Source: Bacteroidaceae bacterium
Lineage (GTDB): Bacteria; Bacteroidota; Bacteroidia; Bacteroidales; Bacteroidaceae
Direction: 5' to 3'
Length of the DNA stretch: 64,000 bases
NCBI GenBank assembly: GCA_045586125.1
Contig: JAZMZT010000218.1
Location: 22,006-86,005 of the forward strand
Below the pieces are notes generated by a model. That model had not been told where the DNA came from. It did no database searches and worked only from the letters and a program-made list of their open reading frames with translations. Positions 37,237 to 60,600 of the stretch are shown here, piece after piece. The stretch's first letter is position 1. Each line of letters starts with the position of its first letter. The position numbers were made by a program, and so were the translations under genes.

Positions 37237-37268
37237 CTAACGTGTTAAAAAATTCGCAAAAACTTAAC

Positions 37269-38056: not shown

Positions 38057-38074
38057 TCTATAAATAAGACTAAT

Positions 38075-39204: not shown

Positions 39205-39215
39205 TACAAAGAAAT

Positions 39216-39752
39216 ATGAGAGATTTAAAATTCCGCGCCAAAGTAATAAAACCTACAAAACCTTGGATGAATTTGGCTCCAGCCGGTTCCTGGGTCGTAG
39301 GAGAGTTGCATACTATGAGTTCTCAACCTCATATACACACTTCATTAGCTGAGAAACAACCTATTGATACATCTACGATTGGTGAATATACAGGATTGAA
39401 TGATAAATATGGCAAGGATATTTTTGAGCATGATATATTGTTGATAAAGAGCTTTGATAATGTCTTGCTTCCTTTAGCTGTTCCAGATAATCTGGATGCT
39501 GTTGCTTCGTTTAGTCACGAGGACGCGAAAGGTAAACTTCTTGATGAGTGTAAGACTCCGGTCATATTCAGAGAAGGTGGTTTTGTTATATTCTTAAATG
39601 GCTCGGAGTCTATGCTTGCAAATCTTTTTGGTGATATGCGATATCATTTTCCCTATTATGAGGTTGAGGTTATCGGTAATTTCTATGATTCTCCTCCTGC
39701 TCTTTTAAAGGAACTACACCTCGTGCAAAAAAGTCATGGCCATGACTTTTGA
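39216..39752 (+). CDS. YopX-family protein
   Basis: MRDLKFRAK... and IGEYTGLNDKYGKDIFEHDIL match the characteristic YopX pattern (kFRaW...ytGlkDknGkeIyeGDi). Confidence 0.6.
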   Translation: MRDLKFRAKVIKPTKPWMNLAPAGSWVVGELHTMSSQPHIHTSLAEKQPIDTSTIGEYTGLNDKYGKDIFEHDILLIKSFDNVLLPLAVPDNLDAVASFSHEDAKGKLLDECKTPVIFREGGFVIFLNGSESMLANLFGDMRYHFPYYEVEVIGNFYDSPPALLKELHLVQKSHGHDF

Positions 39753-39874
39753 TTGACTGCAGTTGTGGTGGTCTCCATCATTTTCTGATGCTACTCCGTT
39801 CTGCTGGACTATATGATATGGCACGTCCTGTCAAGGTTTACTGATTACCTTTACACTAACCAAAACCCAAAACA

Positions 39875-40267
39875 ATGAAATCCCCAGACCTCTACCCCGG
39901 TAACAAACTGACCTACGTCTCCGGTCCCATCTCAGGCCGTAAGCGCATAGACTATCTGCAGGAGTTCCGCCTCTATGCTGATATGCTCCGTTTTGTAGGC
40001 CTCCGTCCGCTCAACCCCACCACCATGTACGGCTTCTTTCAACCCACGTTCAATCTGCTGCCCTACCGCCTCCAGCTTATGATAGACCTCATCCTCCTAT
40101 CCCTCTGCCGCCGTATCATAATGCTCCCCAACTGGCAGAACAGTGTAGGTGCCAATCTTGAGTATGAGTTCTCGCAGGCCTTCTTTATAGAGACCCAGGA
40201 TCCTGACTGGTTGAAAGACCAGGTAGAACGTCGCAAATCCATTAACTCCTACAACGCAGGTGCTTGA
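39875..40267 (+). CDS. nucleoside 2-deoxyribosyltransferase-like (DUF4406-type) protein, tentative
   Basis: 130 aa. YVSGPISGRKRIDYLQEF...GLRPLNP resembles the DUF4406 opening (vYiaGPisG....N...F......G..v.nP). Confidence 0.4.
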   Translation: MKSPDLYPGNKLTYVSGPISGRKRIDYLQEFRLYADMLRFVGLRPLNPTTMYGFFQPTFNLLPYRLQLMIDLILLSLCRRIIMLPNWQNSVGANLEYEFSQAFFIETQDPDWLKDQVERRKSINSYNAGA

Positions 40268-43576: not shown

Positions 43577-44878
43577 ATGTCTGCAAACACAGCTTTCATC
43601 GGAAAGGATGCTCTGACCCATGTGGCCGAGCAGGTAGGTAAGAACATCATCATGGGTCCTGCCTACTCAGATCCTGAACTCTTGGATCGTCTTGGAATCC
43701 AGGTGATTTCCGGAATCCAGTACAAAAAGACCGATACCTTCCTTGTACGCAAGGGTGGTACCACTCGTCGTAAGGTTGTCGGCACTCCTGTTGCAAACTC
43801 CATCGGTTTCCTCAAGGAGCGCACCTTGGTTGCCAAGCTCACTTGGAACCGTTACAAGGACAACATTGACAACTACGTCGAGACTCCGTTTGGCACCGAC
43901 GGCAAGGCCGGAGGTGAGTATCCTCTCTCAACCGTCGCTGTTGAGGCTATCCTCGCTTCTTACGCTGAGGACCTGACCTCAAACCTCTTCTTTGGTGATA
44001 TGTCACTTGAGAATGACTCTGACCCCGATAAGGCCAAGTTGTCTCTCTATGACGGCTTCCACACTCTTATCCGCAAGGATATGGAGTCAGGTGTCATCAA
44101 TACTGCCAACGGTAACATCGTTGAGTGCGATGCCATCACCGCCCCCAGCAATGCTCATGACAGCACACCGTATGATACCGTCTATGACTGGTACATGCGC
44201 TGGAGTCCTCGTCTGCGTCAGCAGAAAAAGATCATCCTGCATTGTGATCTGTCTCGCGGCTCTTATATCGCTCAGGGTTACAGCAACAAGTTCCACGGTA
44301 ACGTCAAGGTCAACTACCTGCTCGGTGCCGACGGCAACCCCAACGGCTCATTCACTATCCCCGAGATGCCTCGCGTAGTGTTCACTCCGTCCGATGCTTG
44401 GGGTGTTGGTACCCGCCTTATGGCCACCGTTCCTAACAACCTGCAGTATGGCGTTGATTCACTCAGCAATGAGTCTTTCGTTAAGGTACAGTTCGGTTCA
44501 GACGATGACGCTCAGGATGTAATCTTCCAGATTCAGTCCATCCAGGGTGCCCGTCTGCTCAATCCGCTGTCATACGCCTTCGTTATCTCTGATGGTACAA
44601 TCCAGAACCCGCTCACACCTAACGTAGTCAACGGTGACTTCACCAACTCACGTCTGGTTATCAACATTGATAAGGCCGGTTATGGTACAGTTAAGGTCAA
44701 CAACGTTGCCTACTCTGAACCTCAGGAGTTCAAGGCTGGCGAGATACTGACCATCACTGCTACTGCTGCCGAGGGTAAACACTTCGTAAGTTGGAGCACT
44801 GGCTCGACTGATGCCACCATCACTGTTGAGGCTACCGGCGTACCTATGGGTCTGACCGCCTTCTTCGAGAACGATTAA
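43577..44878 (+). CDS. putative major capsid protein with C-terminal InlB-B-repeat-like domain
   Basis: 433 aa, immediately downstream of the prohead protease and followed by a strong terminator. The C-terminal ~90 aa (GYGTVKVNNVAYSEPQEFKAGEILTITATAAEGKHFVSWSTGSTDATITV...AFF) fits the G.V.v...y..G..vtl.A.p..G..F..W repeat-domain pattern. Confidence 0.6.
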   Translation: MSANTAFIGKDALTHVAEQVGKNIIMGPAYSDPELLDRLGIQVISGIQYKKTDTFLVRKGGTTRRKVVGTPVANSIGFLKERTLVAKLTWNRYKDNIDNYVETPFGTDGKAGGEYPLSTVAVEAILASYAEDLTSNLFFGDMSLENDSDPDKAKLSLYDGFHTLIRKDMESGVINTANGNIVECDAITAPSNAHDSTPYDTVYDWYMRWSPRLRQQKKIILHCDLSRGSYIAQGYSNKFHGNVKVNYLLGADGNPNGSFTIPEMPRVVFTPSDAWGVGTRLMATVPNNLQYGVDSLSNESFVKVQFGSDDDAQDVIFQIQSIQGARLLNPLSYAFVISDGTIQNPLTPNVVNGDFTNSRLVINIDKAGYGTVKVNNVAYSEPQEFKAGEILTITATAAEGKHFVSWSTGSTDATITVEATGVPMGLTAFFEND

Positions 44879-47145: not shown

Positions 47146-47868
47146 ATGGGTCGATTATCCCCGCAGTACATAGATCTCGTAGAACGCTGGCTTAAAGGAG
47201 GCCTGAATATCTCCCGTATTCGCATGTCTCCCGACCAGCGTCTCCGTGCTATGATAGTCTATGAGGCCTATCAGGTCTGGCTTACCGATAAGCAGATCCG
47301 TGCTCAGGACCTCATCCGCTCCATAGCACAGCGTGAGTATGCCGTCATCCTTGAAAAAGCTTCTGGCGGTGATGCCCGCGCTCAGGAACTCGTCCGTGTC
47401 CTCCGTATCACTCCCGATAAAGACCGCACTATAACAGAGATATCCAATGACGTGGCTCTCTTTGACCACCTCGTAGGCCGTTTCTCCGTCTCCACAGAGC
47501 ATATCGAGCGTGCCAAAGTCCAGGATGCTTCTGATTGGCTTATACGTGAAGGCATGAAGAACGCTGACTCCCGTGCCGTCAAGTCTGGTGCCGAAATCAA
47601 GATGCAACTCAACCACAACTTTGAGCAGCGTGACAATCCTGCAGAGCAGATGCCCTCAATGGATATCGGTATCACAGATGATGTCAGCATAATCAAACGT
47701 GACCGCGTTAACTATACCGATGAGGAGAAACGTCGTATGGCCCGTAAGTACGGTCTTACCGATAAACAGGTCACAGACCTCATCCAGTCCCCTGATGGTG
47801 AATGGCAGATACCAGATGAGCAGCCCGAGCCGGAGCCAGAGAAAGATGTCTTTGATGAGAACCAATGA
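47146..47868 (+). CDS. putative terminase small subunit (by position)
   Basis: 240 aa. Its stop overlaps the large terminase start (ATGA). No motif recognised. Confidence 0.4.
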   Translation: MGRLSPQYIDLVERWLKGGLNISRIRMSPDQRLRAMIVYEAYQVWLTDKQIRAQDLIRSIAQREYAVILEKASGGDARAQELVRVLRITPDKDRTITEISNDVALFDHLVGRFSVSTEHIERAKVQDASDWLIREGMKNADSRAVKSGAEIKMQLNHNFEQRDNPAEQMPSMDIGITDDVSIIKRDRVNYTDEEKRRMARKYGLTDKQVTDLIQSPDGEWQIPDEQPEPEPEKDVFDENQ

Positions 47869-49853
47869 GTGAACCGCGCTACGTCTATATGAATCCCATG
47901 CAGCAACGCATCTACCGCGTTGGTGCAAGGGATTTACGTGTTCTCGGCTCACGTCGTTTCGGCAAGACAGACGGTGTTATAGGCCCCCGTATCTACCGCG
48001 TCTCCATGTCAATGCCTGGAGCCACAAACCTCTGGCTCGGCAACTCCCGCAAGCAGCTTTACACCCGTACCGTCCCCGGCACCATTGCCGCCATAGAGCG
48101 TTTCTTCGGTCTCAAGGAGGGAGTCCATTTCGGTTGGGGCCGTCCGCCCCGTTTCGCTCAGGAACCCATAGTACGCCCCAAGACCTATGATAACGTCATC
48201 TGGTTTGCCAACGGCACCATTTGGCAACTCATATCACTGGCTGTCGTCGGTTCTGCCAACTCCATCACCTGTAACAGTATTATAGGTGATGAGTGCAAGT
48301 ATATGAGCAAGTCCAAGATAGACGGAGAGATCATGCCTACCCTCTCCGGTATCACACATCCTTACGGCCTTGAGTCCTTCTCAGACCTCAACCCTCTCTA
48401 CCGTTCTACCTGCTTTGTGTCCGATGCCTCCCTCACTATTAAAGGCAGTTGGCTGGAGCATGAGGAGGAACTCCTCGATAACCATCCCACCCTCGGCCCC
48501 TATCAGGACCGCACCTACCGTCAGATTCAGGATGAACTTACAGCCTATGCTGATCGTGTCATGCAGTACAGTGACCTCCTGCGTTCCGCCCGTAAGGATG
48601 GCTGCTCGCTCATAGTGTTGCGTAAGGAGCAGATAGATGCCGTCCGCGCTCAGGCACAGGCTATCATGAATCATGAGGGACCCTACCGCATACTGCCCAA
48701 CTACGGCCCCCGTATCAATAAGGCCGTACTTGCCATGTGCATCTCGCACCACCTCATCACCCCTCAGCAGGCCGAACTTCTTTACTGCCATAAGTACCTC
48801 ATCACCCCTGAGCAGGATTTTGATATAGCCCGTATCCGTGAGTCCCGCTCCTATCGCCGTTACATAGAGTCACTCCAGAGCAATGCCTTCTGCTTTTTCC
48901 GCACCAGCACACTGGATAACGTTGACCTTCTTGGTGAGTCTTATATAGCACGTATGCAGCGTGACCTGCCGCCCGTGGTCTTTGCTATCTCCATACTCAA
49001 TAAAAAGATGGTCAAGACCAATGACGGCTTCTACTCCAATCTTGACCTTGATAACGTCCACGGTTATATACCTGATGACTGCCCGGCCATAGATAAGAAC
49101 ATAGTACGCCGCAAGACCACCGCCGCCAATGGTGTCACCAATGAGTATGAGACTCCAGACTTTGAGATGCTTAGTGCCTTAAAAGACTGTACCCTTGATG
49201 GTGATGTAGTCGATGACCTCCCCCTCTATATCGCCATGGACTACAACGCCAATATCAACTGGGTCGTCACCGGCCAGCTTTATAAGCGTGACGGCTGTGA
49301 GTGCCTCAACGTTCTCTCATCTTTCTTTGTCAAGCATGAACGTAAGCTCCGTGAACTTATGGCCGATTGGCACCGTTACTACCGTCCCAAGATGGCCAAG
49401 AATAAGGAAGTCACCTACTTCTATGACTCCACTGCCAAGTTCAAAGGCTATGCCATCGCCGGTCAGCAGGACTTCAAGGATGTCGTCATACAGGAACTCA
49501 CCCGTTTCGGATGGACCGTCCGTGCGGTTGATATGCACCATCCTTATGAGCACGAGGCCAAGCATAAGTATATCAATGAATGTCTGGCCGGAGTCTCCTA
49601 TCCGGGCATCCGTATCAACCTCGATAACAATGAGGCTCTCTGCGTAGCCCTCACCAATGCCGAGGTCTCCATAGGCTATAAGGGTTTTCGTAAGTGCAAG
49701 TCCGGTGAGAAACTATCCGAGAACGCCGATGATGCCGTTCGCCTCGAATTCCGCACTGATGGCACCGATGCTTTTGATACCCTCGTCCTCGGTGTCAAGT
49801 TCCATCTTACCAACCTCAGCGGTATGTGTGCCCCGCTACCTTCTCGTCGCTGA
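47865..49853 (+). CDS. terminase large subunit
   Basis: 662 aa. Walker A-like GSRRFGKTDG near the N-terminus and Walker B-like IIGDECKY. Size and position are typical of TerL. Confidence 0.7.
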   Translation: MSEPRYVYMNPMQQRIYRVGARDLRVLGSRRFGKTDGVIGPRIYRVSMSMPGATNLWLGNSRKQLYTRTVPGTIAAIERFFGLKEGVHFGWGRPPRFAQEPIVRPKTYDNVIWFANGTIWQLISLAVVGSANSITCNSIIGDECKYMSKSKIDGEIMPTLSGITHPYGLESFSDLNPLYRSTCFVSDASLTIKGSWLEHEEELLDNHPTLGPYQDRTYRQIQDELTAYADRVMQYSDLLRSARKDGCSLIVLRKEQIDAVRAQAQAIMNHEGPYRILPNYGPRINKAVLAMCISHHLITPQQAELLYCHKYLITPEQDFDIARIRESRSYRRYIESLQSNAFCFFRTSTLDNVDLLGESYIARMQRDLPPVVFAISILNKKMVKTNDGFYSNLDLDNVHGYIPDDCPAIDKNIVRRKTTAANGVTNEYETPDFEMLSALKDCTLDGDVVDDLPLYIAMDYNANINWVVTGQLYKRDGCECLNVLSSFFVKHERKLRELMADWHRYYRPKMAKNKEVTYFYDSTAKFKGYAIAGQQDFKDVVIQELTRFGWTVRAVDMHHPYEHEAKHKYINECLAGVSYPGIRINLDNNEALCVALTNAEVSIGYKGFRKCKSGEKLSENADDAVRLEFRTDGTDAFDTLVLGVKFHLTNLSGMCAPLPSRR

Positions 49854-50887: not shown

Positions 50888-52063
50888 ATGAGACACTTAA
50901 ATAACAGTAAGCCGCTGGCCGTCACCGTCAGCTATCCGCCACCAAACACCTTTATCAAGATAGTGGCGCAGGATAGCATGAGTACCACGCAGTTCTACCG
51001 TCCTACGGCAAACGAGTGGTACCCAGACCATACTCATGCCCCCATGTATGATGACGGACAGTGTGTCGATGGTCCGCTCCGTCTCCGTCCTCAGTGGATG
51101 GTGGCAGACCCCGACCATATCATAGATCCCTCGGCCCTCTCGCCTACGGTCTATTGGTATGTAAACGGCCAGCAGATAACCTCTACCAGCCCCTCTTCCG
51201 ATTATTATGTTGACTCAGACCAGCTTATAGTACGTAAGAACCTCACACACCTCACTCCCGCCACCATCTATTGCGAGTGTCGCGTCACTGACCCCCGTAC
51301 CAGCACGCCGCTGGTGTTGTCAGATACCATCACCCTTGTGGCAGTGCTCCATGCCGATGAGCAGTGGTGTGTCGAGCTTCTCTCTGCCCGCACCCGTCAT
51401 CACCACCCCCTCTCCTCACCCTCCACACAGTACTCCTTTGTAGGTGAGGCCCGCCTTGGCTCTGCCATCAAGACAGCCGATGTCGCCTGGTTCTGGGATT
51501 ACAGTCTTGACAACGGTGCCAACTGGTCTGCCGTCACACAGGATAAGTATTGGTATGTCAGCGGTCTTGGTACCAGCACTCTGGTCATTGATGTGGACTA
51601 CGTGGATTCCATCTCCATACGTTGTCGCATCAATACAGAGGCCTCCTCTGTGGCCCCCGATATCGCCGCCATGGCTACCGGCTCAATCTCATGGCTCTAT
51701 CCTGATCTCCGCCCCTACGTCTATTCGCTCGGTGGTGATAAGGTCATGTCTGATACCACTGAGATGACCTTCGGTCTTATGGTACACCGTGGCAAGCAGC
51801 CGGACCTCACCCTTGCGCAGCAGCGTGACTGGCTCCTCTGCTCCTGGGTGCTGCGCCAGCAGGGCTCTCAGCAGACTCCCGTCCACCTTGACTCGTCCGA
51901 TGTCATTGTCACTGTGCCTGACACCCGTCTGCGCAGTAACAACGCCACCAAGTATATAGTTGATCCCAACGTCATCTTCCGTGGCCCCTATGATGCCATG
52001 ATAACCTCTGGTAATGATGTCATGCAGACCTCTGCCGGTGATGTCATGTTTATGCGTAACTAA
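50888..52063 (+). CDS. hypothetical tail/fibre-module protein
   Basis: ORF track, 391 aa. Confidence 0.55.
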   Translation: MRHLNNSKPLAVTVSYPPPNTFIKIVAQDSMSTTQFYRPTANEWYPDHTHAPMYDDGQCVDGPLRLRPQWMVADPDHIIDPSALSPTVYWYVNGQQITSTSPSSDYYVDSDQLIVRKNLTHLTPATIYCECRVTDPRTSTPLVLSDTITLVAVLHADEQWCVELLSARTRHHHPLSSPSTQYSFVGEARLGSAIKTADVAWFWDYSLDNGANWSAVTQDKYWYVSGLGTSTLVIDVDYVDSISIRCRINTEASSVAPDIAAMATGSISWLYPDLRPYVYSLGGDKVMSDTTEMTFGLMVHRGKQPDLTLAQQRDWLLCSWVLRQQGSQQTPVHLDSSDVIVTVPDTRLRSNNATKYIVDPNVIFRGPYDAMITSGNDVMQTSAGDVMFMRN

Positions 52064-52092
52064 AATGTCAAACCCTATAAACAAGTACAACA

Positions 52093-53949
52093 ATGAGTAA
52101 AGCAAAACCACTGCCCGCCGGAGAAACCATCTCCAAGGTGTATGTTCTTACGGCACAGGGCTCACTCGTTGAGGCTACTCCAGAGCAGGTCATGGCTATC
52201 CTCCAATCCGGAGGTGTGTTGCTCACAGACCAACTCGAAAGCCTCAAGTCCTCTGTCGAGGCACTCTCTGACCTCTATGGCCATAACGTTGAGGGTTATG
52301 TCCGTGTTGCCGGCATCTCTGATCCCGCACTCAGTTTCAAGACCTACTCACGTGGTGTAGGTATGGAGTCTGTCTTTGATGCTCTTCGTCCCGTTCTGGT
52401 TGAACGTGGTACTGGTAAACCCCTCCATGTCCTCAACCCCCTCAATTGGTATGTTGACCAAGGTGGCCATCCTGTCTCTCTCGATGGCTCTGACGGTGAC
52501 TGCTACATCACCAACATAGTTGACCTCTATGAGATTAGCGGTAAAGTCACAGTAGGTGGTGTCGTCTATGACGTATTCCTCCGTTCACGTACCATGTTTG
52601 AGTGGCAGGGTCACTCCGCCAAGCATATCAAGCCTTTCGGTCTCAGCCCTGACAACGTGGTTGCACACCTCAACTCAGAGACCAATAAGACTGAGATGCG
52701 CTCCGTCTGCAACCCTTCATTTAACGGCTCATACACCGCTATGACCGGCCTTGAGGGTAAGTTCGTCTATTCAGGCGTAGGTGATGGTGTCACAGACTCG
52801 TATGATGGCTCTGCCTCTATCTTCGGTGGTGCTGGTGGCTTGCAGACCACAGACCTTGACCTCCCCACCGGCGAGCAGTACGCCATGAATCTCAACGCTG
52901 ATCCTACCAAGACCGAGCCATTCTTTAACGAGCACGCCCGTGCCGTCGAGATCATGACCGGTCATATCATTGCAGAGGGTGGTACCTTCGATGCTCACCG
53001 CTCATCTCTAATGGGTTCCGGTAACAGCAGTAATGATGCTGTGTCGGCCAACAGTTTCCTCGCCTCGAACACTGCTGCCGTCAACGGCGCACGTTACGTA
53101 GGCTCTGACGGTACCACCGTCCGTTACGCCGCTCTCAGCCGTACCGGCTTTGCAGGTGGCTCCACCTATCTGGGTCAGATGCTCAACTCTTGGAGGCAGC
53201 CGTGGAAACTCTTCGAGCGTCAGCGTGTCATGATTTATGCTCTCCAGAACAACATTGCAGAGCTCACCTGGTTCGCCTTTGAGGGCAACCTCTACAAGTG
53301 GCGTCATGTCGATGGCTTCGCCGGTCCGTCCGAGGGTGCCATGACCTGTGTCATCTGGAAGATGTTCTCCTGCAAGTTCGCCTCTGGCAGTGTCGATCCT
53401 ACCACCGGTTCATCCGTTGCAGGCAACCGTATTGACTTCCTCTTCTCAACCGCCCTCTACCGTGGCTGGCAGACCGATGTCGCACCCTCACGCTGGGTCA
53501 GCGGTCTCATCTTCACCGAGGACAGTTCTGGTACCTACAAGGCCTACTATCAGCCTCTGCAGGCTAACATGCTCAAGTCTCCCACCAATGAGAATCTCTC
53601 CACCTCCACACCTCTGGAGTTTGAGAGTGCCTATGACTATCTTGGTGAGATTACAGGCAAACCTGAGGGCTACCGTAAGGACTATAATGACAGGTGTATC
53701 TTCCTGGCTAAGAATGCTGCCAATGCTACCGGTGGTGGCTTGCATACTTACGTGTGCGGCTATAACTGGTTCACCGGCTCCAACGCCTCAGCAGGCACCC
53801 GTTCTGTCCGTGGGTTCCGTCGTGGTAGCAGCGCTCTCAGTTCATCCCTGTCCCCGTTTTCGTTGGACGCTTACAATTCGCCCTCGCGTTCGGTCTCGAG
53901 CATCGGTTTCGGCACCTGTGTTCAAATCGCAGGTGACTTCCCGGAGTAG
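52093..53949 (+). CDS. DGR target (variable) protein, probable receptor-binding tail protein
   Basis: 618 aa. The last ~50 codons are the VR. It lies in the tail-fibre module. Confidence 0.85.
   Translation: MSKAKPLPAGETISKVYVLTAQGSLVEATPEQVMAILQSGGVLLTDQLESLKSSVEALSDLYGHNVEGYVRVAGISDPALSFKTYSRGVGMESVFDALRPVLVERGTGKPLHVLNPLNWYVDQGGHPVSLDGSDGDCYITNIVDLYEISGKVTVGGVVYDVFLRSRTMFEWQGHSAKHIKPFGLSPDNVVAHLNSETNKTEMRSVCNPSFNGSYTAMTGLEGKFVYSGVGDGVTDSYDGSASIFGGAGGLQTTDLDLPTGEQYAMNLNADPTKTEPFFNEHARAVEIMTGHIIAEGGTFDAHRSSLMGSGNSSNDAVSANSFLASNTAAVNGARYVGSDGTTVRYAALSRTGFAGGSTYLGQMLNSWRQPWKLFERQRVMIYALQNNIAELTWFAFEGNLYKWRHVDGFAGPSEGAMTCVIWKMFSCKFASGSVDPTTGSSVAGNRIDFLFSTALYRGWQTDVAPSRWVSGLIFTEDSSGTYKAYYQPLQANMLKSPTNENLSTSTPLEFESAYDYLGEITGKPEGYRKDYNDRCIFLAKNAANATGGGLHTYVCGYNWFTGSNASAGTRSVRGFRRGSSALSSSLSPFSLDAYNSPSRSVSSIGFGTCVQIAGDFPE
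53798..53911 (+). repeat. DGR variable repeat (VR)
   Basis: Aligns to 54184-54297 at a constant offset of 386 nt: 98 of 114 identical. Of the 16 differences, 15 are at positions where the TR has A. Confidence 0.9.
53913..53935 (+). other. hairpin immediately 3' of VR
   Basis: CACCTG (53913-53918) and CAGGTG (53930-53935) are reverse complements with an 11-nt loop. This is the location where DGR target-site hairpins are found. Confidence 0.5.
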
Positions 53950-54183
53950 TCGTTATCCGCGGGCCTCTGGTCCGCGCCCCACGCAGGTGTGAGCCATTTA
54001 TTCGCACCTGCATAGCATTCGCGGTGGCGGATTATGAATAGGGTGAAAGACCCCGCCACCGCGCCTCGCTGGGAGGCACAAAATCCCATGCCGGAGGCAT
54101 CAACCCCGCCAAGTGATAGTAGCGGTCTCCGGTGAAGGTTGACCCCATGAAGCGTCATGGTGGAAAATGGCGGCTGCAATATT

Positions 54184-54297
54184 CCCGTTCTGTCCGTGGG
54201 TTCCGTCGTGGTAACAACGCTAACAATTCGAACCTGTCCCCGTTTACGTTGAACGCTAACAATTCGCCCTCGAATTCGAACTCGAACATCGGTTTCG
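54184..54297 (+). ncRNA. DGR template repeat (TR)
   Basis: An adenine-rich copy of the VR with 24 A. In the VR frame it reads RGNNANNSNLSPFTLNANNSPSNSNSNIGF (AAC/AAT codons). It has no credible start or context as a gene. Confidence 0.9.
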
Positions 54298-54641
54298 TAA
54301 CCATTGCGCCAATATAGGCCCTACCTATATACACTGATCTTCTACATAGCCGTGCGTGCACGGTTTGGAACATCTTAATAAGTCCTCATGCCTTGTGTGT
54401 TGCCTTCGGGCCGGACTCAGGGAAGAGGCAGTTGCAGAGCCAGCTCATACCAGGGAGCAGACATTTCTTACAGAGGGAGCAGGAATCCCGTCCGACAACA
54501 CAGTATAAGTGGGTTGTAGGACGCGGGGATAGTCAGAACCCCCGCAATCGGCGCACACAGGTGACTGGACCTTTAAACAGTATAATCCGGATTTCCGTAA
54601 GGCGGTCCATGTAGAGAGTATTAACTGAACATAACGGTATA

Positions 54642-55622
54642 ATGAGAAAGAGTACACGTGCCTATATATATGACAAACAGAACCTCCAGCAGGCCTGTTA
54701 CGTCTCCTACCGCGGCAAGTCAAAGCGTCAGCGGCAGAAACCCGAGGTGCGTGTCATTATGGATGACATACCTACATTTGCGGACACCAAGATGTCACAG
54801 ATCCGCTCAGGTACCTATCAGGTTGGGGCATATCGTCACTTCCCGCTTCGTGACCGCAAGAAAATACGTCCCATCTCTGTCCTTCCTCAGGATGACCGTT
54901 GTGTTCAGAACCTCTACAAAGGGGCTTTTGAGCCTCTCGTGCTCCGTCAGGTCACAGATGACATGTGTGCCGGTCTGCCCGGTCGCGGTGTCACCGCCCG
55001 TGACCCTCGCTGGAGCGTAGTCAGTAAGATGAAGCGTGCCATACGCTCCTCTGGGTGCGTCTATATATGGCAGGGTGACATCTCCAAGTATTATGATAAC
55101 GTGCGTAACGTCATAGCCATGCGTTTCATAGAGGGTATCATACATGACCCCGTGGTACTCGGCCTCTTCCGTCAGCACCTCATGCAGATGCGCACGCTGG
55201 CCATCGGCGATCCCTGGTCGCACCTCATCGCCAGCCTCTACATGGCTCCGCTGGTACGTTATCTCAAGCAGAATGGGGCCAACCTCATCAACTTTGCCGA
55301 TGATTTCTTCTGCTGGGCAACCACCAAAGAAGAACTCTGGCGCATACGTCGTCTGGCGCAGGACTTTGCCATACGCACCCTGCGTCTTCATTTCAAACCC
55401 TCCCAGATACGCCGCATGGACTCTGCTCCCGTGCGTTTCTGCGGGTTTGTTTTCTATCCTAACGGAAAGGTGTTCCTCACCTCCGATACTAAGAAACGAT
55501 ATGTCCGTACCCGCCACCGTAGCCGCAGCGTAGCCAGTTACAACGGAATGCTCTCTGTCTGCAACTCACGCCACCTCCGCTATAAGGTCGAGTATCACGA
55601 TAATAACCGTCACGTAGCATGA
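54642..55622 (+). CDS. DGR-type reverse transcriptase
   Basis: 326 aa. NLQQA..YRGKSKR opening, Y..G.Y..F.L.DRKKIRPIS, DDRCVQN, LPGRGV, IGDPWSHLIASLYM, and the catalytic box NFADDFFCW. Confidence 0.9.
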   Translation: MRKSTRAYIYDKQNLQQACYVSYRGKSKRQRQKPEVRVIMDDIPTFADTKMSQIRSGTYQVGAYRHFPLRDRKKIRPISVLPQDDRCVQNLYKGAFEPLVLRQVTDDMCAGLPGRGVTARDPRWSVVSKMKRAIRSSGCVYIWQGDISKYYDNVRNVIAMRFIEGIIHDPVVLGLFRQHLMQMRTLAIGDPWSHLIASLYMAPLVRYLKQNGANLINFADDFFCWATTKEELWRIRRLAQDFAIRTLRLHFKPSQIRRMDSAPVRFCGFVFYPNGKVFLTSDTKKRYVRTRHRSRSVASYNGMLSVCNSRHLRYKVEYHDNNRHVA

Positions 55623-55963
55623 GTGTCAAGAAATCAACCCGTTTCGCCGGCTATCCCCGTAAAGCCGATATGCTCATAGGTAAGCGTCAGACTATTGTCG
55701 ATACCCGTGAGCGTGTCTCTACTCAGAAAGACACCCTTGGTGAGGCCTACTTCGATGTGCAGGCCATCGTCGAGGGTGAAGGTCTCGTCCGCTATAACAC
55801 CGGAGCACGCCTGCTGGTCGAGGAGCTCCGCACCCATGAGCTCCCCTGGCGTGATGCTGTCATAGAGAAAGACTGGCGGGGACTCTACTTTCAGGGCACT
55901 GTCTATACAGTCGAGGAAGAGGAGGCCCTCATACGTCAGAAAATAGGACTCACAGAATATTAA
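55619..55963 (+). CDS. hypothetical protein translationally coupled to the RT
   Basis: 114 aa, ATGA overlap with the RT stop. No resemblance by eye to the helical, basic Avd. Confidence 0.55.
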   Translation: MSVKKSTRFAGYPRKADMLIGKRQTIVDTRERVSTQKDTLGEAYFDVQAIVEGEGLVRYNTGARLLVEELRTHELPWRDAVIEKDWRGLYFQGTVYTVEEEEALIRQKIGLTEY

Positions 55964-55995
55964 CCGCATACATTAACCACAAAATCATAAAACAA

Positions 55996-56370
55996 ATGGA
56001 ACAGCAAAAATTTTCAGAGCGTCAGGCTCTCGGACTCCACAAGTTCACAGGCAGTAACCGTGGCCTTTACTTCATGAATGAGGAGCGCATAGTGAATCCC
56101 AACCCCGAGTATGATCCCCAGGCAGAGGACGGCCCCGCCGCTCAGGAGACCATCGTAGAGTATCAGTATGATGTCTATGACATATCTGATACCCGCCTGC
56201 CTCATAACGTCAAGGATGAGGTCATCAGTGACCGTTATCCTTTCGATGAGGAACACAAGCTCCTCCGTAAGACTCTCGCCAAACTCCTCAAGGAAAATGA
56301 CCTCTATGACGCTGAGGCATATCAGGAGTTTAAGGATTATAACGAGTTCGTTGAATCCGTAAACGCATAA
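55996..56370 (+). CDS. acidic hypothetical protein
   Basis: ORF track, 124 aa, D/E-rich. Confidence 0.55.
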   Translation: MEQQKFSERQALGLHKFTGSNRGLYFMNEERIVNPNPEYDPQAEDGPAAQETIVEYQYDVYDISDTRLPHNVKDEVISDRYPFDEEHKLLRKTLAKLLKENDLYDAEAYQEFKDYNEFVESVNA

Positions 56371-56374
56371 TGCT

Positions 56375-57502
56375 ATGTCCGCGCCCTCCATTTCCAACCA
56401 TTTTGCGTTGACCGCCCTCAAGGATGGAGTCTCCCTCACCGGCTCGCTCCGAGTCGCCGGAGCCCTCTCCCAGAACTACAACGTAGTCACGCACAACGCC
56501 GTCCCGGACTGGAAAAACACCCCCTCAGCGCGTCCCACCATCTACCCCGTGGTCCGCAAGGGTGCCTCATACATACCCAACAGCGCATTCTCATCGCGTC
56601 AATGGTACTACAATGAGGTAGAGATACTGTTTGATGCCAACGGCCGTTCCATCAACTACCTGGATTCGGCCAATGACCCGCTCTTCCAGTCAGGCACCAT
56701 CTCTGTCGATTTGGCCGGAGTCAACTACGTCCTGCCCGCCCTCACCGTCATAGGCAACCTTGCATCTGACAGCAACCTTGACCTTGACTCCATCGCCTTC
56801 CGCGGCTCCACCGAGCTCGTTGCTGGCAGCACCATCGCCTTTGAGGCCAGTGTCGATGTCAAGATCTCGCAGATGACCACCCAAGGCTACCTCGGTCAGG
56901 TAACGCCCGAGAGTGCTATCATCAGTCAGCCCGGTCAGAACGTACAGCTTACGGCTGCCCTCTATGGTGAGGATGGTGCTGTCATCAGCACCAACCTCTT
57001 CTGGGTCAAGTGGTTCAATGCCGCCACCAATACTGAGATTTCCTCTATCAGGAATAACAAGACACCCACCGTCTATGAGAACTCTGATGACGGCACCCCG
57101 TCAGTAGTTGATAACCTCGTCCTCCGTTGTGATTTCTTCTCAGACAGCGGCTATACCAACCGCATAGCCACTGCCTTTGTCTCGGTCGATGACACCCAGG
57201 ATCCGGAATTCCTCTACATCTCGTTCAACAACGGTTCAAGTGACTATTCCGGTCAGGTATCTCCCGGTGAGACAGTGACCATCAACGCCTGGGTCGCCAC
57301 CATGGATGATCCCACCGCCATTAATGCCGGTTACACTGCCTTCGCCCTTACCCTCTATGACGGCCAGCAGGAGGTCATTCCCTCTTCTGCCAGCGGTTAT
57401 CCGTCTGTCACCGTCACAGACCACAAGGCCACCTTCCAGATGCCGTATGACTTCATAGCCGCTCACGGCTATAAGATATCCGGTTTCATCGCTGCCACCT
57501 GA
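56375..57502 (+). CDS. tail fibre-module protein
   Basis: 375 aa. Its N-terminus (SISNHFALTALKDGVS) resembles the N-terminus of the 1736-aa fibre (QISNTFAVSAQKPAVS). Confidence 0.55.
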   Translation: MSAPSISNHFALTALKDGVSLTGSLRVAGALSQNYNVVTHNAVPDWKNTPSARPTIYPVVRKGASYIPNSAFSSRQWYYNEVEILFDANGRSINYLDSANDPLFQSGTISVDLAGVNYVLPALTVIGNLASDSNLDLDSIAFRGSTELVAGSTIAFEASVDVKISQMTTQGYLGQVTPESAIISQPGQNVQLTAALYGEDGAVISTNLFWVKWFNAATNTEISSIRNNKTPTVYENSDDGTPSVVDNLVLRCDFFSDSGYTNRIATAFVSVDDTQDPEFLYISFNNGSSDYSGQVSPGETVTINAWVATMDDPTAINAGYTAFALTLYDGQQEVIPSSASGYPSVTVTDHKATFQMPYDFIAAHGYKISGFIAAT

Positions 57503-57642: not shown

Positions 57643-60600
57643 ATGCAACCCCAGATAAGTAACACCTTTGCCGTCTCAGCCCAGAAACCGGCTGTAAGCG
57701 TTGATCATATCAACAATTACTATCTGCTCACGGCTACCCGTACCGTCCCTGCTGTCAATGACCCCGGCTGGGTGCTCGTGGCACCTGGTGGCCAGATTCC
57801 GGTTCCCGTCACCGCCACTCCTTATCTCTGGCACAAGGCCGTCACCATCCTTACTGATGGTACGGAACTTGACCCCTACGTGGAGTTTGGCGGCTCGCTC
57901 GGCCAGAACGGCATAGACTATGACCTGGTACCGTCACACTCCACAATCATCCATAAGGAGGATGACTCCTATGATCCTACTCAGGTCTCCTGTGGTCTCA
58001 TCCTCCGTAATGCTGATGGTACCGCAACACAGCAGAACACCGTCCCTGCAGGTTACTCCGTACAGGTCAGCATAGACAATGCAGCAGCTTCCTCCTATAC
58101 TCTCGGCACCAACATAGCCACGGCAAACCACACCGTCATCAGCTTCATCCTCAAGTACGGCTCCATCGTCATAGAGCGTCATGACATCCGTGTGTTCACC
58201 GAGGGCTCTCAAGGCCTCCAAGGTCGTGGTATCTACTCAATGGATACCCGTTTCAAGGCCAATGCCACCGGTACAACCCCCGCTTGTGCCTCTGATACCG
58301 ACTGGGCTGGTTGGTCAACCCTCAGTGCTGCTGGTTATTCTTCTGAGAATAAATACCTCTTCCGCTGTGTCCGCACCGTCTATCTGGAGTCTGACGGTAC
58401 CTACTCTAATCCCGAGTTCGTCATAGACGGCCCTACCGTCTGGGGACATGATGCCGAAGATGTATATGCTGTAGATCTTACCAATCAGTCTGATATCATA
58501 CCCACAGATTCTGAGAGTAAGACTACTGGGCAGAGAATCCTCTCTACAACAATACGTCTCTATAAAGGTGCAACGCCGCAAACTATAAACAAACCCACGG
58601 GCGACCATCTCAAGATAGCAGGTATCGCGCCAGTTGTCAGTCCTGACTCCAACACCGCTACCGGTTATACCCTCACCTGGACTATCCCGGCTGCTACCAC
58701 CATCAGCTTTGAGAAACTCAGCATAAAGATAGATGCCAATAGTGATTTCTCCGCCGTGTTCTCTCTGGCTAAGGTCAAGTCAGGTGCAGCGGGAGAAAGT
58801 CCTACCGTCTATCAGATACTCCCTTCTGCCGACCAGTATAACGTTGCGCGTGACGGTAATAACTACGTTCCCTCCACCGTCAGTCCCGTCTGTGGCTATG
58901 TCAAGAAAAAAGGCAGCACTACAACAATCGTCAATGAGGTATCTGCTGACTTTGACAGTCTAAACCTCTATTTCCGTCGTAAGAGCCGCAGCACCGGCAC
59001 CTGGGAGGACGGCCTCTATTACAAGTATGCCGATAAGAAAACAGAGAAACTCGTCAACCTCTCTGTTGCTGACTTCAAGGAGATTCAGTTTGTCATTGCA
59101 AATGATGTCTCTGGAGCCAGTGTTCAGGCCGGCAATCTCGGCGGGATACTTGACATAGAGTCCATCCCCATCGTCGCCGACGGCCGGAGCATAACCGGTC
59201 CTGCCGGCCGTGGTGTCAAGAGCATCGTCAGCCGTTTCAAGACCACCACCTCCGATACGGCTCCCGCCGTCCCCGCCTCACTTGAGGACTGGGCCGGCTG
59301 GTCAACCCTTGATGCCGTTACCTATAACGCCACCAATAAATATCTCTGGCGTTGCACCCAGATCATCTACCTCCTGCCTGATGGCACTGATGATACCCCC
59401 GAATACTCTATAGACGGTCCCTCAGTCTGGGGTCATGAGTCTGTAGATCCATTCACCGTTGACCTCTCTAACGAGTCCGATGTCATACCCACAGACTCCG
59501 CAGGCAAGACCACCGGACAGGTGGTCATCACCACCCGTCTGCGTTTGTATGAGGGTGCTACGCTCAAGACCATATCCCGTCCGGACCCGACCACTATACA
59601 AATAGCAGGTATCACGCCATCAGTGTCTCCTGGCACCTCTACGTCATCCTATTATGACATAACATGGACTATTCCTGCTAACACTACAATAAGTGCAGAC
59701 CGCTATGAAGTCACCTTTACACCCAAGACCAACTACAGCGTAGTATTCTCTGTGGTACGTGTAAAAGGAGGTGCCAAGGGCGACTCTCCCGCTGTTTATC
59801 AGCTTAAACCCTCAACAGATCAGTTCTCTATAAGCCGTACTGATGCTAATGGCTATAATCCTGCTACCGTCCAGCTCAAGTGCGGATATGTCAAGATTCA
59901 GGGTACGGATACAACCATCGTAGCAGATAGCACAAGTGCTTTTGACGGTTATCAGATTTATTTCCGTCGTAAAAAACGTGTTGATGATAGTTGGGATTAC
60001 AGCAACAATTCTTTCCGCAAATACACTACAGCCAATTATAACTCATACCTCAAAAGCATAGATGTATCCCTTTACAAGGCCGTAGAGTTTATTATCTGTA
60101 GCAACTCCTCTGCCACTATCAGCGATCCCAATGAGAACTACGCCAATGTCATAGGTCTGATAGACCGTGAGGTTGTTCCAATAGTAGCCGATGGACGGGT
60201 TGGTAACACCGGTTCTACAGGTAATGGTATCTCGTCAGATCAGTTCTTCTATTGCCTTACTCCTACTCAGGTTCCTCCATCAACAGAAAATCTTGACGTA
60301 GAGCACGGCTGGTATGAGAAAGGTTCTCAAGGTTGCCCCACCTACCCCACACAAATGCAGTCATTCCTGTGGGAGTGTGAGTACATACAATACACCACCA
60401 ATCCCAACCTCAACCAGAAAATCCTGCGCCTCAGCAGTTTCTATAATCTGGCCATCCGTCCTCAGTTGCTGCGTAACACCGCGTTTGACGGAGACCTCTC
60501 GGAGGCATGGACTAATCTTACCAATGGTAAGGTCAACCCGGAGGCTATAGGGGCCTGTGCCGGTTATCAGTGTGAACCTTATGATAGGCCTGTAGATTAT

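Follow-up and report, generated by a model that had tools for sequence, protein, structure and literature searches.

Diversity-generating retroelements (DGRs) are well known as an element class, and the BPP-1 DGR (mtd-VR / avd / TR / Sp / brt) is the described system against which this locus can be compared most closely. The cPRT Stop of BPP-1 is laid out as a duplex, a stem-loop and adenosines (10.1101/2023.10.23.563531), and a complementary RNA segment has been proposed as its homing guide (PMC5703328). The role of residues R74 and I181 of its reverse transcriptase (RT), bRT, has been described (PMC7826257). No accessory gene is recognised in 29% of catalogued DGRs (PMC5758913). Based on all analyses, it was concluded that a large phage of rumen/gut Bacteroidales, represented here by a 64,000-nt stretch of DNA (the window), encodes a DGR whose targets are 13 codons specifying the tip of a tail-fibre-like protein. 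This lineage has no Avd, but instead an RT-linked 114-aa partner, predicted to be a small beta-barrel, and a large conserved, structured RNA around the template repeat (TR). These properties, and the complementarity of the RNA 3' end to the flank of the variable repeat (VR), go beyond an earlier note made on the same DNA. The features are collected in Table 1.

Table 1. Features of the DGR cassette, in positions of the window
Feature	Position	Strand	Remarks
DGR target gene, 618 aa, tail-fibre / receptor-binding-like	52093..53949	+	ORF list; VR within C-terminal 51 residues
Variable repeat (VR)	53798..53911	+	13 diversified codons; base-by-base TR comparison
VR 3' flank, IMH equivalent	53912..53927	+	TR/VR homology decay zone
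GC-rich hairpin, 8-bp stem, 3-nt loop	53958..53976	+	8 nt past target stop codon
Two further strong hairpins	53983-54011, 54021-54062	+	after the GC-rich hairpin
DGR RNA 5' domain	54081..54183	+	conserved across loci with RTs only 43-66% identical
Helix H1	54090-54098 / 54125-54133	+	compensatory changes in 6/9 pairs
Helix H2, TR-bracketing	54169-54180 (5' strand) / 54431-54441 (3' strand)	+	100% paired, 3 compensatory pairs
Template repeat (TR)	54184..54297	+	intergenic, 24 adenines
DGR RNA 3' domain	54298..54549	+	RNAalifold and pair counts
Helix H3	54382-54387 / 54425-54429	+	
Stem-loop H4	54443-54446 / 54455-54458	+	directly after H2 3' strand, then A-rich stretch
Helix H5	54475-78 / 54486-89	+	
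Helix H6	54490-97 / 54515-22	+	
Helix H7	54524-28 / 54541-44	+	
Conserved 3' terminal element GGCGCACACAGGTG	54550..54563	+	complementary to VR flank; predicted cis-primer / target-guide strand
DGR reverse transcriptase, 326 aa	54642..55622	+	Pfam RVT_1 4e-14; phrog_1423 1e-48
114-aa RT partner	55619..55963	+	start overlaps RT stop (ATGA); candidate non-Avd accessory factor, small beta-barrel (OB-like) fold
124-aa acidic protein, pI 4.5	55996..56370	+	directly downstream of RT/accessory domain; possible second cassette component

The earlier note had reported an ungapped 114-nt alignment of VR and TR with 98 identical positions. It had placed 15 of the 16 differences on TR adenines, which number 24 in all, and had called the single remaining difference (TR G54230 against VR A53844) synonymous. 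A base-by-base recount returned the same numbers, the remaining difference changed TCG to TCA (both Ser), and the translations given for the two repeats were exact. The pair was also detected independently by a repeat finder as 53798-53927 / 54184-54313 with a spacing of 386 nt; the homology started abruptly at 53798/54184 and decayed past 53911/54297. Read in the target frame, each of the 24 TR adenines was the first or second base of its codon, and these codons comprised AAC/AAT 11 times and ACG and ATC once each. If mismatches were placed at random, 15 or more of the 16 would hit the 24 adenine positions with a probability of 9e-10 (binomial) or 9e-12 (hypergeometric). A search for the 21-mer core with up to 3 mismatches returned these two sites and no other in the window, when 0 chance matches were expected. 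At the 13 codons, the potential repertoire was at most 2.8e14 variants at the DNA level and 1.4e14 at the peptide level, with stop codons being impossible.

Further, the VR variation check suggested in the earlier note was run on 26 near-identical loci of other assemblies. Variation was recorded at 24/24 adenine-matched positions, most of which showed all four bases, with a mean pi of 0.65, a diversity measured between assembled consensus sequences of different samples and not inside one population. Elsewhere in VR, 3/90 positions varied, each in one locus only (pi 0.0025), and in TR 2/114 positions varied, both as singletons. The difference between adenine-matched and other positions gave a Fisher P of 1e-21, and the background diversity of the target gene in the same loci was 0.037 (pi). 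Among 27 loci 21 distinct VRs were found, none with a stop codon, and 61% of the A positions were substituted. In one locus (L026) a singleton T to C change at TR position 79 was mirrored in the VR of that locus, a natural marker transfer in which a TR point mutation was copied into VR. The same cassette, with A-only mismatches (e.g. 19/19, 20/20), was present in ~30 loci with RTs 43-66% identical.

The target protein had no sequence match in Pfam, PHROG, NCBIfam or PDB, and its more than 300 homologues carried no annotation. Its AF2 model (pLDDT 86.3, pTM 0.85) was matched by Foldseek against BFVD to models of phage 'receptor binding complex', 'tail fiber' and 'tail collar fiber' proteins with E = 1e-38 to 1e-8, so that the receptor-binding type proposed in the earlier note agreed with the predicted structure. 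The top match in PDB was the DGR variable protein TaqVP, a weak one (E = 5.8e-3), and the model weakly supports a C-type-lectin fold of the VR domain. The statement that the target sits among fibre genes stood in part: one neighbour had a PHROG tail-protein match and the target itself had the fold match, but no fibre genes were annotated. The likely role of the element is a receptor-binding diversification, and hence a diversification of host range.

The RT length of 326 aa and its start 344 nt past TR were both confirmed as previously given. Motif 4 of the enzyme reads LAIGDPWSH, with a final SH in place of SQ, and FADD forms the catalytic box; S193-H194 were invariant throughout the clade. 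Residues R76 and I188 were conserved and aligned with R74 and I181 of bRT. The affiliation of the RT was checked by comparing its family profile with PDB, where Bordetella bRT scored 92 bits (E = 3.6e-25, full length), group II intron RTs at most 59.5 and a retron RT 26; by profile similarity, bRT is thus the closest solved relative. The biochemistry may differ from that of BPP-1, since motif 4 ends in SH and Avd is absent. Because of the VR variation and the profile affinity to bRT, it was concluded that the element is a genuine DGR with past activity within the phage population and a tail-fibre-like protein as its target. All observations which the earlier note had listed as contrary to its interpretation were looked for, and none was made.

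No Avd was found in the cassette. The 114-aa unit was present in 36/36 family loci, either as a separate ORF after the RT or fused to it, and the protein was 41-51% identical to the C-terminal extension of ~440-aa RTs in sister clades. Its AF2 model (pLDDT 80.6) had the topology b1-b2-b3-alpha-b4-b5-alpha, which makes the protein a candidate OB-like small beta-barrel; the best Foldseek match was not significant (E = 0.12), and no match was found in Pfam, PHROG, NCBIfam, PADLOC or PDB. A homologue of the 124-aa protein occupied the same position in 36/36 loci despite differing genes outside the cassette. It had no family match in the databases searched, Pfam, PHROG, NCBIfam and PADLOC among them, and could be merely a linked tail-module gene. 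The order target-TR-RT-114-124 was constant between loci, when the genes outside varied. Since the conserved RNA flanks and the two conserved downstream ORFs belong to it, the functional cassette is 52093-56370, larger than 53798-55622. Therefore, the "complete" DGR of the earlier note holds in an Avd-less sense only, because avd is absent, and the extent given there was too short.

The RNA around TR was conserved and structured over ~480 nt, at least from 54081 to 54563. It contained 44 pairs in 7 helices, and 21 of the pairs were changed on both sides (compensatory). Pairing was kept in 97.9% of cells, compared with 32-42% for slid partners, and was equalled by 0/500 shuffles. No Rfam family matched this RNA, nor was any found within 53000-56500. 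The RNA fold of 53940-54090, where the hairpins are located, had -67.1 kcal/mol (z = -3.6), and a GC-rich hairpin was found within ~110 nt after VR in 20/23 related loci. The hairpin next to the target stop codon may be a terminator or may correspond to the stem-loop which BPP-1 has downstream of VR.

The motif CACCTGTGT (53913-53921) in the VR flank has its complement in the 3' terminal element of the DGR RNA, and the two covaried in 23 loci; 53912-53949 showed no variation in the 26 loci. The longest Watson-Crick run of the 3' element was on average 8.8 nt against its own VR flank, 4.4 against the TR flank and 4.5 against shuffles. Four matched sequence classes of 3' element and VR flank were scattered over the RT tree. 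In BPP-1, Sp48-56 has the same complementarity to its own IMH. The complementarity between RNA 3' end and VR flank, maintained through covariation, supports an RNA-primer-guided homing, in which the 3' element would act as primer. The priming site is ambiguous: it would lie at helix H3/A54430 by position relative to the stop-like duplex, or at 54550-54563 by IMH complementarity.

A 114-nt direct repeat of 86% identity could in principle have arisen by plain duplication or by gene conversion between normally diverged C-terminal coding copies, the neighbouring RT being unrelated. This is improbable in the extreme, as 15/16 differences fell on TR adenines (P about 1e-9), the intergenic copy was invariant when the coding copy was hypervariable at exactly the adenine sites in 26 loci, and the pattern was repeated in ~30 divergent loci, each time beside the same RT family. 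An ordinary duplication or gene conversion was thus refuted by the adenine-specific, one-directional pattern. It is also very improbable that the element is no DGR and that its RT comes from a group II intron, a retron or a defence system, although the best-matching NCBIfam model was that of group II intron RT/maturases (E = 1.5e-16, far below cutoff), weak PADLOC matches were obtained for generic RT and DRT models, 'retron-type' is the annotation of some phage homologues, and motif 4 departs from the canonical ...SQ. Against these stand the full-length profile score to bRT, the start of motif 4 with Ile-Gly as in DGRs rather than Gln-Gly, the lack of a maturase or endonuclease extension and of any group II intron, retron msr/msd or other Rfam family within 53000-56500, and an adenine-biased TR/VR pair linked to the RT in every case.

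Within a real DGR lineage, the copy in the window might be a frozen relic in which diversification has ended, which we consider unlikely. The synonymous non-A change at 53844 was private to the window VR (0/25 relatives), implying either time elapsed since the last homing or a mistake of the RT opposite a base other than A. Decay does occur in this DGR family, as the adenine-rich template has apparently been lost from a related locus (L054). However, the window retains intact ORFs for the RT, the 114-aa protein and the 124-aa protein, the RT is identical to a protein cluster present on many contigs, TR matches the population consensus exactly with none of its 24 adenines missing, every RNA helix is preserved, and the VR is distinct from every other VR sampled. 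A less remote alternative, although still a doubtful one, accepts the DGR but takes the 114-aa and 124-aa proteins for ordinary tail-module genes beside an RT acting alone (Architecture A), and the pairing of 3' element and VR flank for an RNA-RNA helix, e.g. a processing site. It agrees with the 29% of accessory-less DGRs (PMC5758913) and with the lack of a significant structural match for the 114-aa protein, and the computed complementarity of the 3' element fits a DNA or an RNA partner alike. On the other hand, the 114-aa unit was covalently fused to the RT in 30/36 loci, and in the window its ORF overlaps that of the RT at the stop codon; its family had only 18 relatives among 1.84 billion representative proteins, all in the RT-cassette context; the five-part order persisted while outside genes differed; and the equivalent complementary segment of BPP-1 is an experimentally mapped primer strand.

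Taken whole, the locus is best explained, with high confidence, as the DGR of a ~100-kb tailed phage of rumen/gut Bacteroidales, for which a BPP-1-like mechanism and a non-Avd partner are proposed. As in the BPP-1 DGR, a transcript of at least ~480 nt (54081-54563) would be produced, and H2, followed by the stem-loop and the A-rich stretch, would loop TR out like the cPRT Stop. The 3' element would pair imperfectly with the TR 3' flank and prime cDNA synthesis in cis, and the RT, with its conserved R76 and I188, would misincorporate opposite the 24 TR adenines. We proposed that the RNA-linked cDNA then anneals to the target sense strand while the RNA primer segment pairs with CACCTGTGT in the VR flank; this pairing would set the 3' boundary and the TR-to-VR direction, and VR would be replaced. 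The role of Avd may be filled by the 114-aa protein, a suggestion based on RT fusion and co-occurrence, possibly jointly with the 124-aa acidic protein.

The element shares a virus-encoded location and a tail-fibre-type target with the DGRs directed at tail-fibre / tail-collar proteins in crAss-like phages and others of the gut (Roux et al. 2021 viral clades 1, 4, 6; crAssphage LMMB; CrAssE-Sib). The predicted target fold matched proteins of the crAss-like phages cr55_1, cr7_1, cr6_1 and cr85_1, and CrAssE-Sib gave the best tblastn match of the RT in cultured or deposited phages (26%). However, neither the DNA nor the target protein was similar to any of 50,697 deposited phage records, and the tape-measure-type protein encoded by the source genome would be unusual in a crAss-like podovirus.

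The Avd-less Bacteroides/phage DGRs (Wu et al. 2018 Architecture A/E, Lineage 3; hankyphage p00) are likewise Bacteroidales-associated and have no avd. Hankyphage has the same layout of target-VR, short spacer, TR, spacer and RT, and its RT is likewise long (434 aa). Small acidic flanking proteins (CH1) were reported in Lineage 3a, but they are longer (160-169 aa) than the 124-aa protein. In contrast, the hankyphage RT was only 24% identical, similarity of its C-terminus to the 114-aa domain was not detected, and its spacer had no clear VR-flank complementarity (7 nt, within shuffle range).

The likeness to BPP-1 extends to the order of target-VR, TR and RT on one strand, a tail-fibre gene with VR at its very 3' end, the AAY codon design of TR, substitution of ~50-60% of A-sites, an RT whose closest solved homologue is bRT with R74 and I181 conserved, a duplex of upstream and downstream strands bracketing TR and leading into a stem-loop and adenosines, an RNA segment for which the IMH of VR is a better pairing partner than the IMH* of TR, and a GC-rich hairpin after VR. 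The locus differs in that the VR-TR interval contains no avd and is non-coding, structured RNA/DNA, the RT is ~25% identical with motif 4 ending in SH, not SQ, and the (GC)14 element is absent. The downstream RNA is ~265 nt, compared with 140 nt in BPP-1, and a conserved upstream domain of ~100 nt is additional. Between the stop-like duplex and the presumed primer strand on its 3' side there are ~110 nt, when the BPP-1 primer strand is immediately 5' of the duplex. Finally, the accessory candidates are a predicted beta-barrel domain fused to the RT and an acidic 124-aa protein, whereas BPP-1 relies on a basic four-helix-bundle pentamer.

It was concluded that the region carries a real diversity-generating retroelement (DGR), which has been active over the time of strain divergence and acts on the C-terminus of a tail-fibre-like protein. 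A DGR at this C-terminus had been proposed in the earlier note, and both the observation and the interpretation of that note were supported by the comparison of the repeats, the variation across 26 loci, the profile of the reverse transcriptase (RT) and the fold of the target. A base-by-base comparison of the template repeat (TR) with the variable repeat (VR) reproduced a gapless alignment of 114 nt, in which 98 positions were identical and 16 differed. Fifteen of the 16 differences (94%) fell on the 24 TR adenines, and the sole remaining one (TR G54230 vs VR A53844) converted TCG to TCA and was synonymous. The previously quoted peptide readings of both repeats were exact, and the 618-aa target ORF as well as the 326-aa RT ORF, which starts 344 nt past the TR, were recovered as described. 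The pair was also returned independently by a repeat finder as 53798-53927 and 54184-54313. One criterion for a DGR was that at least 75% of the TR/VR mismatches lie on TR adenines, a share exceeded by this pair; the chance of 15 or more of 16 mismatches falling on 24 adenine positions was P = 9e-10 (about 1e-9). In most of about 30 related loci the mismatches were 100% adenine-matched. The core 21-mer was absent elsewhere in the window, beyond the VR and TR sites, even when three mismatches were allowed.

The natural variation of both repeats was analyzed in 26 loci from viral, metagenome and Logan assemblies, which were found by exact-word scans and exact-protein look-ups and carried both repeats together with an RT at least 90% identical. 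Several of these records bore a bovine or ruminal label. The TR was the same as that of the window in 24 of the 26 loci and had one change in each of the remaining two (2 of 114 positions variable). Nearly every locus had a differing VR, and the differences lay at the adenine-matched columns. All 24 adenine-matched VR sites were variable, with a mean nucleotide diversity of 0.65 and four bases at most sites, against 3 of the 90 other sites, which were singletons only (pi 0.0025; Fisher P = 1e-21). The background pi was 0.037 in the upstream 1 kb of the target gene and 0.025 in the RT gene. The expectation that VR variation would be limited to the adenine-matched sites next to a nearly invariant TR was thus borne out across the 26 loci. 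The non-adenine VR change at 53844 was private to the window. In one locus (L026) a T-to-C change at repeat position 79 of the TR was also present in its own VR, therefore sequence had flowed from TR to VR in a natural marker transfer. The population data, with a constant TR, 21 different VRs and one TR marker repeated in its VR, amount to a natural experiment, in which the activity was seen without laboratory work.

The VR corresponded to codons 569-606 of the 618 codons of the target. In the target frame, all 24 TR adenines occupied codon position 1 or 2 (11 AAY codons, one ACG and one ATC); therefore, adenine randomisation cannot yield a stop codon, and none was present among the 21 distinct VRs. 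The computed repertoire upon randomisation of the TR adenines was 2.8e14 DNA or 1.4e14 peptide variants. Each distinct VR had 10-18 of the 24 adenine sites substituted, and the overall substitution of 61% (G 26%, T 22% and C 13%) was close to the misincorporation of roughly 50% reported for bRT, the RT of Bordetella phage BPP-1 (PMC7826257).

Two further loci deserve a mention on their own. At TR position 47 of L012, one of the compared loci, the adenine (window 54231) was replaced by T, and the VR of this locus likewise had T; such a loss of a template adenine would mean one diversifiable site fewer. The distant family member L054 (IMGVR_UViG_3300001598_000005; RT 43% identical) had two copies, at 2968-3089 and 3226-3347, which differed at 11 sites with no adenine bias. 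The sequence at its TR position was adenine-poor (11 A) and resembled a second diversified VR. This locus may be a DGR frozen by an overwritten template, or its VR may have been duplicated and the true TR may lie at another place.

The RT matched only RVT_1 in Pfam and a generic RT family in PHROG, and the top solved structure in a single-sequence search was bRT (8ub7). A profile built from 25 family members was run against the PDB, where it matched bRT over the full length (residues 48-320) with 92 bits (E = 3.6e-25); the group II intron RTs stayed at or below 59.5 bits, a Cas-associated RT scored 40 and the retron Ec83 RT 26. By these profile scores the adjacent RT would be placed in the DGR RT lineage, in agreement with the earlier assignment to DGR RTs rather than to those of group II introns or retrons. 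A group II intron was rejected, as no Rfam match to its ribozyme domains at E ≤ 1 was present in 53000-56500, the 326-aa RT had no maturase or endonuclease extension, and the NCBIfam model scored 60 bits against a cutoff of 300. A retron was rejected likewise, as no Rfam retron family was detected in the same interval, the retron St85 model scored 16 bits against a cutoff of 235, and the Ec83 RT lay far below bRT in the profile search. No Rfam family reached E ≤ 1 anywhere in 53000-56500; the families searched included the motifs RT-1 to RT-19 (Weinberg 2017).

The DGR assignment of the RT was examined further at the level of residues. Motif 4 read IGDPWSH, which kept the Ile-Gly and Ser of the signature [I/V/L]GxxxSQ and had His in place of the terminal Gln; this His was invariant in 25 of 25 aligned family members. 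The signature is a literature hallmark of DGR RTs that lies outside their operational definition. The SH motif was taken as a lineage variant and not as an exclusion, because the bRT substitution Q187P leaves adenine mutagenesis unaltered, whereas I181 does matter (PMC7826257). R76 and I188 aligned with R74 and I181 of bRT, which were shown to promote adenine mutagenesis (PMC7826257), and both were invariant in the family. When compared by tblastn with the RTs of 50,697 deposited phage records, the RT was 23-27% identical at most, including those of the crAss-like phage CrAssE-Sib and of Bacteroides phage p00 (hankyphage), the record of which carries a DGR annotation. Among 185,579 reference genomes the RT family occurred only five times, always in Bacteroidales.

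The 618-aa target had no match in Pfam (FGE-sulfatase and DUF1566 included), PHROG, NCBIfam, PADLOC or PDB sequences, whether searched as a single sequence or as a profile, and its more than 300 homologues were all without annotation. A confident AF2 model was obtained with 60 homologues as input (pLDDT 86, pTM 0.85). Foldseek matched this model in BFVD to proteins named 'receptor binding complex', 'tail fiber protein' (crAss-like cr55_1) and 'tail collar fiber protein', with E = 1e-38 to 1e-8, and to one FGE-sulfatase-like protein at E = 8e-4. Against 350,542 PDB chains the top match was weak (E = 5.8e-3, TM 0.26-0.39) and was the C-type-lectin-fold DGR variable protein TaqVP; Mtd was among the matches at E about 1, and a C-type-lectin fold of the VR domain is a tentative reading. 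The gene upstream of the target matched a PHROG tail-protein family. The predicted fold lends good support to the target being a tail-fibre or receptor-binding protein, and the earlier description of it as a tail-module protein agreed with the BFVD matches.

Coordinates of the retroelement, its predicted RNA helices and other features of the window
Feature	Position	Strand	Remarks
1200-aa ORF	4250-7852		no Pfam match; PHROG matches to unknown-function families only
Sliding clamp	8492-9631	+	DNA polymerase III beta; PF00712, PF02768
841-aa ORF	12253-14778		no Pfam match; PHROG matches to unknown-function families only
404-aa ORF	21040-22254	+	beta-ketoacyl synthase N and C domains; PF00109 2.8e-26, PF02801 1.5e-11
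Low-G+C block	~26000-40000		
566-aa DNA methyltransferase	27305-29005	+	phrog_116, 4e-74
433-aa hallmark ORF	43577-44878		
662-aa ORF	47865-49853	+	weak PHROG 'terminase large subunit' match, 8.5e-6
Gene upstream of target	50888-52063		
Target gene	52093-53949		618 aa
VR	53798-53911		
VR flank	53913-53921		CACCTGTGT
VR-flank hairpin	53913-53935		CACCTGTG...CGCAGGTG
Hairpins past target stop codon	53958-76; 53983-54011; 54021-62		
H1	54090-98 / 54125-33		
H2	54169-80 / 54431-41		
TR	54184-54297		
H3	54382-87 / 54425-29		
H4	54443-46 / 54455-58		
H5	54475-78 / 54486-89		
H6	54490-97 / 54515-22		
H7	54524-28 / 54541-44		
3' element	54550-54563		GGCGCACACAGGTG
RT gene	54642-55622		326 aa
114-aa ORF	55619-55963		
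124-aa ORF	55996-56370		acidic
1736-aa ORF	57643-62853	+	no Pfam or PHROG match

The non-coding DNA of 21 loci, the RTs of which were 43-66% identical, was aligned, and blocks more conserved than coding sequence were found on both sides of the TR, from 54081 on the 5' side and up to 54563 on the 3' side. RNAalifold predicted seven helices (H1-H7) with 97.9% standard pairs, compared with 32-42% when the partners were slid by 1-3 columns. Changes on both sides were seen at 21 pairs, against 5-10 in the slid controls, and none of 500 shuffles reached the observed values. H2 was 100% paired in the 21 loci, with three compensatory pairs; it joins a segment just 5' of the TR to one about 135 nt 3' of it, and therefore brackets the TR. 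Its 3' strand was followed directly by the short stem-loop H4 and then by an A-rich run. The cPRT Stop of BPP-1, made of the avd:Sp duplex, a stem-loop and A-minor adenosines, has the same composition. In a survey of Avd-containing DGRs, with Avd-less ones outside its scope, such duplexes were found in 207 of 278 (Handa et al., 10.1101/2023.10.23.563531).

Three strong hairpins (z = -3.6) were predicted past the stop codon of the target, and 20 of 23 relatives had a GC-rich hairpin no more than about 110 nt from the VR. This GC-rich hairpin recalls the stem-loop that enhances target recognition in BPP-1; a terminator role is equally possible. A scan of 53800-54700 for sigma-70 promoters and terminators gave matches at chance level, with a model not applicable to Bacteroidales. 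A hairpin in the VR flank was considered as a conserved cruciform and rejected, as it was missing from the relatives.

The final conserved block of the RNA, the 3' element GGCGCACACAGGTG, was complementary to the VR flank CACCTGTGT, the point in the target where the TR/VR homology ends. In 23 loci, the longest Watson-Crick run between the 3' element and its own VR flank was 8.8 nt on average and up to 12 nt; the corresponding mean was 4.4 nt for the TR flank, and shuffled sequences gave 4.5 nt. Pairing with the TR flank was rejected as the primary constraint, since its run did not differ from the shuffles and no covariation accompanied it, and imperfect pairing at this place is possible. Four matched variants of the 3' element and the VR flank were found: ACCTGTGTGCGC with GCGCACACAGGT, ACCTGTTGT with ACAACAGGT, ACCTGTTGC with GCAACAGGT and ACCTGCTGC with GCAGCAGGT. 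These were interspersed on the RT tree, therefore the match had been re-established several times. The VR flank encodes a conserved Gly-Thr-Cys motif; hence, the RNA element appears to track the coding sequence.

A comparable arrangement exists in BPP-1, where Sp48-56 AGGTGGTCA, the last base of which is the priming A56, is a perfect complement of 9 nt of the VR IMH TGACCACCT and an imperfect one of the TR IMH*. Two more 9-nt complementarities were observed between the BPP-1 spacer and the region downstream of mtd that holds the hairpin. Naorem et al. 2017 (PMC5703328) had pointed out the Sp/IMH complementarity before and proposed that a cDNA-attached RNA primer pairs with IMH in an Okazaki-like intermediate and sets the directionality; homing was described as 'poorly understood' by Handa et al. 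(10.1101/2023.10.23.563531). The covariation suggests that 54550-54563 is the primer strand. As an alternative that may hold equally well, a primer at H3 and A54430 was considered by positional analogy: the BPP-1 primer directly adjoins the stop-duplex strand on its 5' side, and H3 and A54430 fill this place here. With the 3' element as the putative primer strand, the family supplies support from covariation for the model of Naorem et al. in a distant Avd-less lineage. Of all the steps of a DGR, the one by which the cDNA locates the VR and takes its place is understood least, and here an RNA segment tracks the changes of the VR flank and not those of the TR flank. RNA-guided homing is directly testable in this family by compensatory mutation and, if true, would give a simple retargeting rule for compact Avd-free DGRs as mutagenesis tools.

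Avd is present in about 74% of DGRs and is not universal. The VR-TR interval held no ORF, no Avd was found among the neighbouring ORFs by Pfam or NCBIfam, and tblastn of BPP-1 Avd against the window gave nothing below E = 3, that is noise only, in a test that is weak for such poorly conserved proteins. The sister-clade RTs (about 440 aa) had a C-terminal extension 41-51% identical to the 114-aa ORF; in the window, the start of this ORF and the stop codon of the RT overlap. All 36 family loci had the 114-aa unit: in 30 it was joined in frame to the RT, and in the other six, namely L054 and the five loci of the clade to which the window belongs, a separate ORF downstream encoded it. Directly after the RT/114-aa unit, each of the 36 loci also had a homologue of the 124-aa acidic ORF, and the genes flanking the cassette varied from locus to locus. 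The fusion and strict co-occurrence point to the 114-aa protein as a probable RT partner; the fusion in most relatives is strong 'Rosetta-stone' evidence of physical partnership and points to an alternative to Avd, which bears on template positioning in the Avd-less DGRs, about one quarter of all DGRs.

Searches of Pfam, PHROG, NCBIfam and PADLOC were empty for both the 114-aa and the 124-aa protein, as was the PDB profile search for the former. When 1.84 billion representative proteins were scanned exhaustively with HMMER, the 114-aa protein had only 18 relatives at E ≤ 0.001. The majority either stood alone, with 108-139 aa, or matched at the C-terminal end of larger proteins, up to the size of RTs with 434-442 aa, and a few were weak multi-stretch matches within very long proteins. 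The AF2 model (pLDDT 80.6) had the order b1-b2-b3-helix-b4-b5-helix, which, read from topology, is typical of an OB-like small barrel. Foldseek gave nothing significant in the PDB; the weak matches included the OB-fold proteins PrgE, Teb1, DUF35, EMAP2 and S12/S17 among many unrelated folds. The C-terminus of the hankyphage RT was tried as a homologue of the domain, and no similarity was detected. Wu et al. 2018 (PMC5758913) described the accessory classes avd, HRDC, MSL and CH1 and noted an Avd-less Bacteroides lineage; the 114-aa domain fits none of their class descriptions.

All large ORFs of the window were on one strand, and a tape-measure-like protein, a head-maturation protease, a sliding clamp and a methyltransferase were encoded. 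Megablast of 52000-56500 against the deposited phage collection gave no match, nor did tblastn with the target or the 433-aa hallmark ORF; therefore, this is a phage with no relative in that collection. Related contigs reached 99-101 kb. The loci L077 and L033 were NZ_BEWV01000204.1 (Prevotella sp. MGM1, a cultured isolate) and IMGVR_UViG_2885358051_000002, both with a length of 90,283 bp. The Prevotella sp. MGM1 contig, one of the five reference-genome occurrences, carried a family cassette with an RT 63% identical, which makes this isolate a candidate host and an experimental entry point.

Several other features of the window were recorded. The beta-ketoacyl synthase ORF, in a stretch that is otherwise phage-like, would encode a fatty-acid or polyketide condensing enzyme, an unusual auxiliary gene in a phage. 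The low-G+C block had a G+C content of 0.40-0.46 vs 0.50-0.57 elsewhere, a reversed or neutral GC skew and many small ORFs, and may represent an early-gene module or one that was acquired separately. The 662-aa ORF was located between the head genes and the tail/DGR module. The 1736-aa ORF, just 3' of the cassette, differed in length in near-identical relatives (1741-1747 aa).

We infer mechanistic roles for the accessory proteins and the 3' element. We tentatively propose, at slightly less than an even chance, that this DGR is the type example of an undescribed Avd-independent lineage of Bacteroidales phages. In such a lineage Avd would be substituted by a lineage-specific small beta-barrel (OB-like) domain, usually at the RT C-terminus and here split off as the 114-aa protein, and the 124-aa acidic partner may join in. 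The RNA, structured and about 480 nt long, would be re-wired: its primer or guide strand would lie at the extreme 3' end instead of beside the stop duplex. Across the family this strand covaries with the IMH-like flank of the target. If true, this would be the first phylogenetic (covariation) evidence that RNA-primer:target pairing sets the choice of target site and the directionality in DGRs, an idea proposed for BPP-1 in 2017 (PMC5703328).

As a DGR, the element belongs to a well-known kind, since phage tail-fibre DGRs are well known. It is new as a lineage, being distinguished by the absence of Avd, the SH form of motif 4, an unannotated RT-fused domain with a predicted beta-barrel fold, a conserved acidic protein, and a large RNA supported by covariation, in which one helix brackets the TR and a 3' element varies in concert with the flank of the target.
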